Shown here piece after piece: positions 55,061 through 63,762 of a DNA stretch of 64,000 nt. Source of the stretch: Escherichia phage Killian; the sequence record OQ446694.1; one strand, 5' to 3'. The position numbers and the translations under genes are program-made. The notes beneath the pieces are model-generated. The model saw only the letters and a list, made by a program, of their open reading frames with translations, did not search any database and was not told the origin of the DNA. Each line of letters starts with the position of its first letter. Position 1 is the stretch's first letter.

Positions 55061-56648
<1,588 letters not shown>

Positions 56649-56654
56649 AATAAA

Positions 56655-56669
56655 ATGGGCCTTGCGGCC
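56655..56669 (-). other. hairpin between nrdB stop and denA start codon
   Basis: gggcc-gcaa-ggccc located between an AAGGA Shine-Dalgarno-like element and the denA ATG. Confidence 0.55.
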
Positions 56670-56675
56670 CACTCC

Positions 56676-57854
56676 TTAAAAATATTTTTTAAAACTCATC
56701 ATAACTTTATCATCAACATCATTATCAATCTGTGCAACAAGGTAAGATGACAGTTCTACTTCTTGTGGCGCGGATTGAACATTATCAGAATTAAGATATT
56801 CACGAATCCAAGGATATGGATGTTTAACCGGAGCATCGGTAATTGGGCATGGAAGACCGCACTGTTTCATACGAGATACAGTTAAGTAATCAATAAAGCT
56901 CCGCATGCTATTTGTATTTAATCCAGGAACATCACCATCTTTAAATAAATGAACTGCCCAGTCTTTTTCTTGACGGTTAACTTCCATGAAAATATCAACT
57001 GCTTCTTGTTCACACTCTTGAGCAATTTTAACCCATTCATCGCCATCAGTACCGGATTGAAGTTGACGAATAATATATTGGGTGCCTTTAAGGTGAAGCT
57101 GCTCATCACGTGCAATGAACTTCATAATCTTGGCATTACCTTCCATGATTTCCATGTTCTTATGGAAGTTAAAGGTACATGCAAAAGATACATAAAAACG
57201 AATAGCTTCTAAGGCATTAATAACGTGCAAACAGAGGTAAAGAGATTTCATTAGTGCTCGTTTAGCTTCGGCTTCTTGTTTAATAGCTCGATTTAAACGA
57301 AAAACAGCATCAGGAGATTCTTTAGCTAGTTCTGTAAATTCTTTAGCATTTTCCCATTCACGGGTTTTAGTCAGAACATCATCATAATAGCGACCGATAG
57401 ATTCAGCACGTTTCATGATAGCTTCATCTAGTACAATCTCATCAAATACCTTCGATGGATCAGTATAAAGATTTCGCATGATATGAGTATATGAACGACT
57501 GTGAATAGTTTCACTAAAAGTCCATGTAGCAACCCATGTATCAAGACTTGGGTCTGAAATTAATGACATAAGTACAGCAGATGGCGCACGACCCTGAATG
57601 CTATCTAGAAGTGATTGATACTTCAGGTTATTAGTAAAAATATCTTGCTGATACTGAGGAAGCTTGTTAAATTGTGCAGCATCCATCATCAAGTTTACTT
57701 CTTCAGGACGCCAAAAAAATGATAAAGATTTCTCAATAAGTTCTTCAAATACTCTATGCCGTTGAATATCATATCGAGCTAAACCCAATCCAGAACCAAA
57801 AAACATCGGCTCAGTTAAAATATTAACAGGGGATGTATTAAAAACTGTACTCAT
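56676..57854 (-). CDS. nrdB: ribonucleotide reductase small subunit, uninterrupted (no intron)
   Basis: 392-aa continuous ORF. Confidence 0.93.
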   Translation of the reverse strand: MSTVFNTSPVNILTEPMFFGSGLGLARYDIQRHRVFEELIEKSLSFFWRPEEVNLMMDAAQFNKLPQYQQDIFTNNLKYQSLLDSIQGRAPSAVLMSLISDPSLDTWVATWTFSETIHSRSYTHIMRNLYTDPSKVFDEIVLDEAIMKRAESIGRYYDDVLTKTREWENAKEFTELAKESPDAVFRLNRAIKQEAEAKRALMKSLYLCLHVINALEAIRFYVSFACTFNFHKNMEIMEGNAKIMKFIARDEQLHLKGTQYIIRQLQSGTDGDEWVKIAQECEQEAVDIFMEVNRQEKDWAVHLFKDGDVPGLNTNSMRSFIDYLTVSRMKQCGLPCPITDAPVKHPYPWIREYLNSDNVQSAPQEVELSSYLVAQIDNDVDDKVMMSFKKYF

Positions 57855-58492
57855 TTAGAATCCTTAAATTTACATTTATCATAATGCCATCTTAAAGCAT
57901 TGCCTTTATTAACTTTCTTGCCACAATGCGGACAAGGCGGATACTCTGTACCTTGCTTAGTTCTCAAAGAGATCAAATCACGAGTTTCTTTAGTATGAGG
58001 AACATCTCTTGTCGGAGAGATTGTACCATACATCGGATTAAGCACGCCGACTTTAGCAGCAGCTATATTCTTTTTAGCTTCTTCGGTTTTAGGTTTTCTC
58101 ATGCGAGCTAAATGCTCTTTGGTAAATTTCCTTCCTTTAAGAGCTCTACTTATCTTTTCTCTGGTTTCTATAGAAACTTCACGTCCTATAGCAGCTTCAG
58201 ATAAACGTCGTCTACCTAATTCGTATAGTTGAGAAGAAATTTTATATGAGCGATTTTTACCAGTCAAGCACATTAAACCAAAAGCTTTCTTTAATCCTGG
58301 CGTGTCATATATTTTACATAAAAGCCAATGAGCTATAAAATGCTCTCTACCTGTTAATTCAACTAAATTTTCTTTATCATCAGAACCTCCCATACATCTA
58401 GGGATTATATGATGAGTCTCTTTATATCCTAATAAAGGTTCCCGGGTTTTAGCCCGGGAAATTAAACTATTATATACGTTTTGATAATTCAT
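57851..58492 (-). CDS. mobE: HNH homing endonuclease between nrdA and nrdB (mobE-like)
   Basis: 213 aa; ETHHIIPRCMGG HNH motif, NUMOD3-like repeats, C-terminal CPHCGKK...C zinc finger; ATG overlaps nrdA TAA. Confidence 0.7.
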   Translation of the reverse strand: MNYQNVYNSLISRAKTREPLLGYKETHHIIPRCMGGSDDKENLVELTGREHFIAHWLLCKIYDTPGLKKAFGLMCLTGKNRSYKISSQLYELGRRRLSEAAIGREVSIETREKISRALKGRKFTKEHLARMRKPKTEEAKKNIAAAKVGVLNPMYGTISPTRDVPHTKETRDLISLRTKQGTEYPPCPHCGKKVNKGNALRWHYDKCKFKDSK

Positions 58493-61313: not shown

Positions 61314-62174
61314 TTACACCGCCATTTTTCCTTTAATAGGAGGGTGTGATTCGTAACCTTTAAGAACGAAATCTTTAGGCCTGAGTTTAAGAACATATTC
61401 CAATTGTTCTTTAGTAGAAAGATAGCGGAATTTATAAGGCAATCCGCCTATTACCAGTTCACAAAGCTCTTTAGGTTCACGACGTAAAATTTCTTTACAT
61501 TGTTCTACGTGATTCATATAGATATGAGTATTACCACCAGAAAATATCAAATCTCCTGGAATAAGATTACACATCTTAGCTACAATATGAACTAACGCAG
61601 CATATGATGCAATATTAAATGGAAGACCGAGGAAAACATCTACTGATCGTTGATACCACTGCAAATCCAAATAGCCATTACGCACATTAAACTGATAGAA
61701 CATATGACAAGGCGGTAATGCCATATATTTAAGTTCAGCTGGATTCCATGCTGAAACAATTTGACGTCTATCATTTGGCAGTTTTTTAATACGATTAACA
61801 ACTTCTACAATTTGGTCTACACCGCCAAAATCACGCCATTGTTTTCCATAAATTGGACCAAGTTCACCGCTATGATATCCTAAATCTTTTGCTTGATTTT
61901 CGTAATTTTCGTCCCAGACTGTTTTGCCTTGAATTAATGAATCATGCTGAATTAATCGTAAATCATTGACATTTGTGCTTCCTGATAAAAACCAAAGTAG
62001 CTCAGCAATGCAAGCTTTCCAGGCGAGCTTCTTAGTTGTTACTGCAGGAAAACCTTTACTTAAATCCCAACGTAATTTAGTACCGAACAAAGCAATTGTT
62101 CCTGTGCCTGTTCGGTCATCAGTTTCATAGCCATTTTCAAAAATGTCTTTAATTAAATCTTGGTATTGTTTCAT
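61314..62174 (-). CDS. td: thymidylate synthase, uninterrupted (no group I intron)
   Basis: 286-aa continuous ORF; T4 td intron position maps to 61625/61626 and is unoccupied. Confidence 0.95.
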   Translation of the reverse strand: MKQYQDLIKDIFENGYETDDRTGTGTIALFGTKLRWDLSKGFPAVTTKKLAWKACIAELLWFLSGSTNVNDLRLIQHDSLIQGKTVWDENYENQAKDLGYHSGELGPIYGKQWRDFGGVDQIVEVVNRIKKLPNDRRQIVSAWNPAELKYMALPPCHMFYQFNVRNGYLDLQWYQRSVDVFLGLPFNIASYAALVHIVAKMCNLIPGDLIFSGGNTHIYMNHVEQCKEILRREPKELCELVIGGLPYKFRYLSTKEQLEYVLKLRPKDFVLKGYESHPPIKGKMAV

Positions 62175-62219
62175 TTAGTACCTTATATAAATTATAATAC
62201 ATTTTATGAAGCTAAATAA

Positions 62220-62582
62220 TCAATACGGTTTAGCGTCAAATTTTCTTTCAATTTCAGGCGTAAAATACAATTCTTTACCACGCTTGGAAAAGCGACCAAT
62301 AATATGATAATTATTCTCATCAAACGTGATATTGCCAATATCCATAGCTTTCAACCAAATATCGATATTTCTATCCAGCTTTATATCAAAATTCCAATAC
62401 GGAGAACTATTACCAAAAATACTGCAAGCGGATTCAGTGCAATAACTGCTGCTATAAATCTTGTCTTTGGGAACTACTAATTGATAGACGCCTTTAATAA
62501 ACTGAGGACCCTGCCATTTTGGTTGTTTCGCGTCTTTTTCTAATAGAATAGGGTAATAATTAAAGTTCATATTTTCCGCCAC
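62220..62582 (-). CDS. hypothetical protein between frd and td
   Basis: 120-aa ORF with no recognisable motif, filling a position where T4 frd and td overlap. Confidence 0.6.
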   Translation of the reverse strand: MAENMNFNYYPILLEKDAKQPKWQGPQFIKGVYQLVVPKDKIYSSSYCTESACSIFGNSSPYWNFDIKLDRNIDIWLKAMDIGNITFDENNYHIIGRFSKRGKELYFTPEIERKFDAKPY

Positions 62583-62590
62583 GCGTTATT

Positions 62591-63175
<585 letters not shown>

Positions 63176-63418
63176 TCAAAACCCCCTTTCAATAAACCAT
63201 TCAGTGGCTTTATTAGCATCAAAGAATAATTCTTCATATGTCTTTTCTTTGTTTTCAAAGACTGTCACACAAACGCGTTGACATTCTCCGCAGTATTCTT
63301 CTGACATACTCAAAGCGTCAGAAAACATTTCATTAAATTCATTTAAATCAGGATTATACAAAGCGTTAAAAATTGCATAATCGAATTCATCATTCATAAA
63401 TTCAAATACAAAAATCAT
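63176..63418 (-). CDS. hypothetical protein (frd.1-like)
   Basis: 80-aa ORF. Confidence 0.55.
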   Translation of the reverse strand: MIFVFEFMNDEFDYAIFNALYNPDLNEFNEMFSDALSMSEEYCGECQRVCVTVFENKEKTYEELFFDANKATEWFIERGF

Positions 63419-63426
63419 ATTATCTC

Positions 63427-63762
63427 CTAATATAAAGGATCGGGAACATATCCACTGGCTTTAATCATTTTAATTAACGTTAACATTCCTTTATTAACTG
63501 CTCGTGAGATTTCATCAAAAACTTCATCACTAAAAAGTTCTAACACACCCTTCTGAACTTTTAATTTACATCCAACAATTTCGTCATCACCTATAGTAAA
63601 TTCGTTTCCGCCAATTCCACCGAAAAACTTAATTACGCCAGTTAACTGTCTTCCACGAGAATATGGGTCGTGTGATAAAGTAATATGAGTCACCCCAGGT
63701 ACAGTTTTAAATTGGCAGCGGATATTTACTTGGGCAATTCCAGTTACGTGAATGTCAGACAT
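63427..63762 (-). CDS. hypothetical protein (frd.2-like)
   Basis: 111-aa ORF with GAGG RBS. Confidence 0.6.
   Translation of the reverse strand: MSDIHVTGIAQVNIRCQFKTVPGVTHITLSHDPYSRGRQLTGVIKFFGGIGGNEFTIGDDEIVGCKLKVQKGVLELFSDEVFDEISRAVNKGMLTLIKMIKASGYVPDPLY

Follow-up and report, generated by a model that had tools for sequence, protein, structure and literature searches.

Bacteriophage T4 carries its dihydrofolate reductase gene (frd) and its thymidylate synthase gene (td) with a 4-bp ATGA overlap (...GTATATAAATGAAACAATACC...). In Escherichia phage Killian, an additional open reading frame (ORF) lies between the two. It has to be asked whether this ORF is a gene, whether Killian or T4 is the exception, how the two junctions arose from one another, and what the protein may do. 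An earlier reading, made from the sequence alone, had stated the T4 overlap, which is borne out by the T4 sequence. It took the Killian ORF for a small accessory insertion in an otherwise fixed gene junction. The DNA examined is a 64,000-nt stretch of the Killian genome (OQ446694.1), called the window throughout. All three genes are encoded on the minus strand, in the order frd, ORF, td, and the junction comprises the following elements.

62591..63172, minus strand: frd (dihydrofolate reductase), 193 aa, ending ...TESVYK*, assigned from the ORF list and labels in matching phage records
62586..62597, minus strand: left repeat copy TAAATGAAATAA, overlapping the frd stop, with a possibly vestigial td start, ATG AAA TAA
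62220..62582, minus strand: frd-td ORF as first read, GTG start, 120 aa, MAENMNFNYYPILLEKDAKQPKWQ...
62571..62581, minus strand: TGGCGGAAAAT, a purine-rich stretch resembling a ribosome binding site, immediately 5' of ATG 62570
62220..62570, minus strand: frd-td gene as corrected here, ATG start, 116 aa, PHROG 1928 'A-type', TGA stop at 62220-62222
62175..62219, minus strand: spacer between the ORF and td, 45 nt, non-coding
62191..62212, minus strand: candidate MotA-type middle promoter for td, tttaGCTTcA, 10 nt, TATAAT (or 12 nt to TAATTT)
62166..62177, minus strand: right repeat copy TAAATGAAACAA, the functional td start
61314..62174, minus strand: td (thymidylate synthase), 286 aa, without a group I intron, assigned from the ORF list and matching records

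The gene between frd and td

The coordinates and translation of the first reading stand, as do its gaps of 8 bp to frd and 45 bp to td, but its GTG start at 62582 does not. This GTG is not conserved (RB51 has GCGCGG in its place), many tblastn matches start only from query residue 4, and the database homologues are 115-116 aa long. By these comparisons, the true start of the ORF is therefore ATG 62570, which gives a protein of 116 aa and a gap of 20 nt from the frd stop. On the other side, the 45-nt spacer is almost identical across T2, T6, PST, RB51 and Bas39. An Rfam search of the window gave no intron match in td and no RNA family anywhere, and td is followed on its 3' side by nrdA.2-like (DUF5496) and nrdA.1-like (DUF4326) genes and by nrdA.

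In T4-like phages, the ORF is an accessory gene that genuinely codes for a protein. Its product matches phrog_1928 with an E-value of 1.3e-33 (residues 8-116 on profile positions 2-125 of 126), a family that has neither a functional annotation nor a Pfam assignment. It lies, moreover, directly 3' of frd on the same strand of a T4-like genome, as is usual for PHROG 1928. A tblastn search over 50,697 phage records located the ORF in 580, including 362 at 90% amino acid identity or more, among them T2, T6, RB3, RB14, RB27, RB51, AR1 and PST. Within Tequatrovirus, the protein is 96-97% identical to the window copy, compared with 91-92% for Frd (92% for window Frd against T2 Frd). Pairwise Nei-Gojobori comparison of seven alleles yielded dN/dS values of 0.02-0.06 at dS of 0.2-0.9, and the ORF is thus under strong purifying selection. 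That the ORF is open by chance within a non-coding spacer, for which nothing speaks except that no database domain is found, can be ruled out. The profile match, the low dN/dS and the presence of homologues in several genera, with conserved motifs down to about 27% identity, all argue against it, as does a confident AlphaFold model.

Neither is the gene special to Killian, as hundreds of genomes already carry an annotation for it and PHROGs includes it. It is named RB32ORF229c in the GenBank records of RB14 and RB51, and is the same gene as the 'hypothetical protein' between frd and td in T2, T6, RB3, RB14, RB27, RB51, AR1, PST and others. These genes share 95-99% amino acid identity with the window ORF, and the position, the 9-12-nt repeat and the 45-nt spacer are alike. 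In the RB51 entry, the gene is even described as 'flanked by 9 bp repeat'. With 362 records carrying it, the ORF cannot be regarded as unusual. Against T2, the window ORF has one additional codon and otherwise no difference. The peptide differs locally around this codon, at 62439-62456 (minus strand; ...IYSSSYCTES..., compared with ...IYSSCFTES... in T2, T6 and RB51), and falls in a variable segment that is modelled with low confidence.

Six records (NC_054937, PQ571308, MZ501066, MZ501067, MZ501089 and OK272484) give the product conflicting names, namely 'putative glucose-1-phosphate adenylyltransferase', 'putative homing endonuclease' and 'putative dihydrofolate reductase'. Profile searches back none of them, and the adenylyltransferase label was rejected for want of profile support. 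In the literature on the ORF and the frd-td junction, including PMC2993671 and PMC2790892, we found no mention of the ORF, and no report of its expression in any phage.

The gene, PHROG 1928 and the flanking repeat noted in GenBank were thus known before. The present analysis adds the conserved start codon, the presence of a paralogue pair and of a 68-aa ORF at the same junction in other phages, evidence for a probable re-insertion of the Tequatrovirus copy from a relative, the rejection of two record labels, and a fairly confident model of an OB-like fold. What emerges is a strongly conserved orphan gene family that is tied to the frd-td junction in the best-studied group of phages, with T4 as a natural null.

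Junction states in T4-like phages

The first reading would have failed if T4 had the same ORF at this place. When all six frames of the full T4 genome were searched with the family HMM, no member was found (best E 0.83). Since T4 is without any family member, the gene is dispensable for lytic growth. A paralogue elsewhere is absent from both the window and T4.

The proposed comparison of frd-td junctions across T-even genomes was carried out, and it showed the ORF to be common and the junction to be polymorphic. An 80-bp probe spanning the T4 junction matched 501 records, and an evenly spread sample of 60 was examined. The uninterrupted T4-type junction was present in only 4 of the 60 (two T4 records, FL12 and FL18), whereas in 34 the halves of the probe were about 496 bp apart, as expected when the ORF is present. 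In a single record, Shigella phage SP21535 ('Tequatrovirus lutter'), the distance was 286 bp. The remainder were one-sided matches, including T6, which carries the ORF. The ORF-containing junction is thus the majority state in Tequatrovirus, and T4 belongs to the minority. In other words, the ORF is a normal and widespread gene of T-even phages, and the frd/td overlap of T4 is the exception in this genus.

SP21535 represents a third allele. In place of the Killian-type ORF, it has a basic 68-aa ORF (1539-1745) that overlaps both neighbours. The encoded protein is 69-79% identical to the product of the ORF directly 5' of td in an Enterobacter phage (L003) and a Klebsiella phage (L008). Since Tequatrovirus genomes hold the A-type ORF, the 68-aa ORF or nothing at this place, and other genera hold two or three ORFs, the junction cannot be called otherwise fixed. 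In Mosigvirus, 134 of 139 records have a direct frd/td junction, as in RB69. An exception is PHB12, a Mosigvirus that carries the ORF. Its frd has 86-90% nucleotide identity to Tequatrovirus and 64% to RB69, and its td is 96.7% identical to that of RB69, with a mosaic switch at the td start. It therefore appears that frd and the ORF were imported together in a recombination event that crossed over where td begins. PHB12 has a 15-nt spacer in place of the 45-nt spacer between the ORF and td.

Beyond these genera, the family is small. Across 1.84 billion representative proteins, an exhaustive search with the HMM yielded only 41 family clusters, of which 39 are full-length members of 95-139 aa and two are short fragments; a word-indexed protein search had returned only 3 and then 10 relatives, so that the exhaustive search was needed. 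All 39 representatives match PHROG 1928, and Pfam yields no domain in any of them. The family is limited to small stand-alone proteins of Straboviridae. Wherever the context was checked, which covers the window and loci L003-L009 and L011-L016, its members lie directly 3' of frd, and a remote homologue takes this place in at least eight other T4-like genera. Examples come from Enterobacter phages, Jiaodavirus, Gelderlandvirus, Kagamiyamavirus, Winklervirus, Klebsiella phages and two metagenomic contigs. In six annotated phages (Enterobacter vB_ECC_MY742, Klebsiella JD18, Salmonella S16, Escherichia EcS1, Erwinia Gravdalen and Klebsiella kv_tblp2), the homologue is 27-46% identical to the window protein, lies immediately 3' of frd and mostly overlaps its stop codon. 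In the two metagenomic contigs (L011 and L012), a homologue at 61-65% identity also follows frd directly. Even in Providencia, Morganella and Pectobacterium phages, whose members diverge most, the annotated neighbour is dihydrofolate reductase.

In most genera other than Tequatrovirus, the A-type gene is followed by a tandem paralogue (B-type), which has an insert of about 20 aa (PTIxEYKxNP) after a conserved Trp. The two types are related with 99.3% probability and an E-value of 1e-20 according to hhalign. B-type genes were located at the following positions of the compared loci.

L003, 2832-3191: B-type paralogue
L005, 2809-3159: B-type paralogue
L006/L007, 2814-3185: B-type paralogue
L008, 2790-3143: B-type paralogue
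L011, 4332-4673: B-type paralogue

The tandem pair indicates an old duplication at the frd-td locus, as judged from the sequence comparison. In MY742, kv_tblp2 and the metagenomic contig L011, the pair is followed before td by a well conserved ORF of 68-69 aa ('C'), so that the fullest arrangement found is frd-A-B-C-td. The distant members (S16 gp155/gp154, JD18_224, EcS1 ORF255/254, and proteins of Enterobacter, Erwinia and Providencia phages; 27-61% identity) belong to the same family as the window ORF. They share with it the location after frd, the size, the residues W19, G92, K96 and G98, and a hairpin with the motif IGRFxKxG. Their genes, however, overlap the frd stop and are usually followed by the paralogue with the 20-aa insert and by the 68-aa ORF, whereas Tequatrovirus has the A-type copy only, placed between non-coding spacers.

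Additional ORFs are also found on the other side of frd. Two small ORFs lie immediately 5' of it on the minus strand, at 63176-63418 (80 aa, no Pfam match) and 63427-63762 (111 aa, DUF7247). T4 lacks both at that place, with frd.1 (DUF5417) adjoining frd, while T6, PST and the metagenomic contigs L011/L012 have comparable additional ORFs. The surroundings of frd thus vary on both sides.

Origin of the Tequatrovirus copy

The ORF of the window is flanked by a direct repeat. The two copies, TAAATGAAATAA and TAAATGAAACAA, agree in 11 of 12 nt (92% identity) at a spacing of 420 bp, and share an exact 9-mer, TAAATGAAA, which is found at 62589-62597 in the left copy. The left copy is also present in T2, T6, PST, RB51, Bas39 and PHB12, and the T4 and RB69 junctions have a single copy of the sequence. 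In the left copy, ATG AAA TAA corresponds to the first two codons of td followed by a stop, where td has CAA. No terminal inverted repeats surround the ORF segment, and its sole ORF has no transposase, integrase or recombinase domain. A transposon-like insertion, suggested by the direct repeats, was therefore rejected.

The arrangement could have arisen by gain or by loss of the ORF. An old insertion from a related phage is the probable origin of the Tequatrovirus copy, and to this extent the insertion proposed by the first reading is upheld, though not its fixed junction. The left repeat copy resembles what an earlier overlap junction would leave behind; were the gene an ancestral resident, a td-like start at the frd stop would be a coincidence. 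The 11 nt 5' of the ORF (TGGCGGAAAAT) resemble the frd 3' tails of the closest outgroups, the metagenomic contigs L011/L012 (TGGTGAAAAgcg or TGGTGAAAAGCG / TGGTGAAAAAC), a weak similarity of 8/11 nt; Frd of these contigs ends in ...VYGEKR*, compared with ...VYK* in the window. The identities of the ORF and of its flanks also disagree. The A-type protein of the window is closer to that of L011 (61%) than the latter is to its sister L003 (50%), and the reverse is true for Frd (48% and 59%) and Td (79% and 90%). In addition, the outgroup genes overlap, whereas the Tequatrovirus ORF lies between non-coding spacers, and RB69, with an frd that is only 64% identical, has the same overlap junction as T4. 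The right spacer of 45 nt is not similar to the B-type gene of L011/L012.

Alternatively, the gene may have been retained vertically since the ancestor of the Tevenvirinae, and the T4 and Mosigvirus junctions would then be precise deletions between the 9-12-nt repeats. This would reverse the polarity assumed by the first reading. We consider it the less probable course of events, though one to be taken seriously. It would fit with the homologues directly 3' of frd in at least eight other genera, with the T4 junction consisting of exactly one repeat copy, with the rarity of T4-type junctions in Tequatrovirus (4/60), and with flanks that are 100% identical to those of T4 over 80 bp in some carriers of the ORF. 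The similarity to the outgroup frd tail, at just 8/11 nt, also carries little weight against it. Furthermore, the 9-mer TAAATGAAA (stop TAA, then ATG AAA) is frequent as a stop/start junction motif, with 10 copies in the window against 3.9 expected. As a recurrent gene-junction motif, it could also supply the microhomology by which other parts of the genome lose or gain segments.

According to the insertion model, the Tequatrovirus copy would have been re-acquired long ago from an L011/L012-type relative, by illegitimate insertion into an frd/td junction with the ATGA overlap. The td start would have been duplicated over 9-12 nt in this event, and the new 45-nt spacer would have come in with it. 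The ORF-containing allele may then have spread by recombination, for example into the Mosigvirus PHB12 together with a Tequatrovirus-type frd. The empty site of T4 would be either a surviving ancestral allele or the result of a secondary, precise excision.

Expression, predicted fold and possible roles

A sequence resembling a MotA box, followed by TATAAT, had been pointed out in the 45-bp gap upstream of td. In the T4 middle promoters that depend on MotA and AsiA, the MotA box follows the pattern (a/t)(a/t)(a/t)TGCTTtA and is centred near -30, and the -10 element, TAnnnT, comes 11-13 bp after it. The string is indeed present, but the match is weak: the site falls outside the strict TGCTTNA/11-13 pattern and fits only a relaxed one, which matches 32 times across the window, about 1.7-fold more than the 18.4 +/- 4 of shuffled sequences. 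It is kept in T2, T6, PST, RB51 and Bas39, and absent from the 15-nt spacer of PHB12. Judged by its sequence, it is possibly a middle promoter for td and a reasonable candidate for one. A scan for sigma-70 promoters gave results at chance level. As no terminator-like site is present between 61000 and 64000, read-through from promoters 5' of frd is the default expectation. The ORF protein may share its prereplicative transcripts with Frd and Td.

The first reading recognised no motif in the protein, and searches of Pfam, NCBIfam and PDB sequences agree. When Pfam, NCBIfam and PHROG were scanned with the ORF and its 39 relatives, the only match was the unannotated PHROG, and PDB sequence profiles returned only noise. 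The family alignment shows invariant W19, G92, K96 and G98 and near-invariant Q16, G27, Y29, F94 and F103, and a C-terminal motif IGRFxKxGxxxxF; the window protein has all conserved residues. AlphaFold2 models improved from a pLDDT of 79.5 and a pTM of 0.75 with 10 sequences to a pLDDT of 86.6 and a pTM of 0.80 with 39. Both predict strands at 6-12 and 27-34, a variable segment of low confidence at 35-62, a strand at 63-65, a helix at 69-77, a strand at 81-83 and a long hairpin at 87-97/100-105. In these models, the order of elements is that of an OB fold (three strands, helix, two strands). The predicted small barrel shares its strand order with the OB folds of SSB, RPA, PriB, S1, cold-shock, HIN and Teb1 proteins, and the lists of structural matches, which are weak, contain nearly only OB folds. 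Matches in BFVD were limited to uncharacterised proteins of Straboviridae, including some from Aeromonas phages with borderline scores.

The family pI is mostly 7.8-9.5, the aromatic content is high, and aromatic and basic residues are among those conserved. The protein may be a non-enzymatic binding module, a mildly basic, aromatic-rich beta-barrel that is made with Frd and Td and whose conserved residues would bind a nucleotide, nucleic acid or another protein as partner; this is the reading we prefer, though with low confidence. A narrower version, in which the family is a previously unrecognised OB-fold partner of the thymidylate-cycle enzymes Frd and Td, appears improbable. The translation of the family gene would be coupled to frd in most genera. 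The link to frd may only mirror the generally conserved gene order of T4-like genomes. If the narrower version were true, the protein might anchor the synthesis of dNTPs to DNA or RNA, or shield it from host defences that target nucleotides. It could also underlie some of the phenotypic differences between T2 or T6 and T4, and that the model phage T4 lacks it would explain why it has escaped study. Finally, the protein may be a counter-defence or host-takeover factor, unrelated to nucleotide metabolism like many small and variable early genes of T-even phages, and placed after frd by historical accident. Presence or absence varies among close relatives, the protein is small, without an enzymatic motif and encoded in a region with other variable small ORFs, and purifying selection combined with dispensability in T4 is typical of conditionally useful genes. 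However, the protein matches no known family of any kind, the gene keeps its place across genera to a degree unusual for one related to defence, and no literature in support was found, and we rate this role, too, as rather unlikely.

It is very improbable that the protein is a free-standing homing endonuclease or what remains of a degenerate one, although three records from the BASEL collection (MZ501066, MZ501089 and MZ501067) bear this label. The flanking direct repeats, the patchy distribution and a 'GVYQL' string similar to a GIY motif might be taken in its favour. Like the seg, mob and hef homing endonuclease genes, the ORF is an intergenic extra compared with T4, sits in a nucleotide-metabolism cluster and is patchy among relatives; unlike them, it encodes no nuclease or DNA-binding domain, keeps one locus across genera and is under strong purifying selection. 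Pfam searches gave no match to GIY-YIG (PF01541), HNH (PF01844) or NUMOD in the ORF even at E 10, and no nuclease domain in 39 family members, whereas the same search detects HNH/NUMOD3 at 57851-58492 and, in the ORF that takes the denA position (56238-56672), a GIY-YIG domain. The hhalign comparison with I-TevI gave 0.8% probability over 12 residues, which marks 'GIYQ' as a coincidence. The family conserves no His/Asn/Glu catalytic set in the required order, the models predict a beta-barrel and not the alpha/beta fold of GIY-YIG enzymes, 116 aa are too few for a nuclease and a DNA-binding domain, and terminal inverted repeats are absent. With no nuclease profile, next to no similarity to I-TevI and the wrong predicted fold, the identification is effectively refuted.

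A real free-standing homing endonuclease gene is nevertheless present in the window, 4 kb from the ORF. It is the 213-aa ORF with HNH and NUMOD3 domains at 57851-58492 (minus strand), between nrdA and nrdB, where T4 has mobE and nrdB.1. The adjoining nrdB (56676-57854, 392 aa) is apparently intronless.
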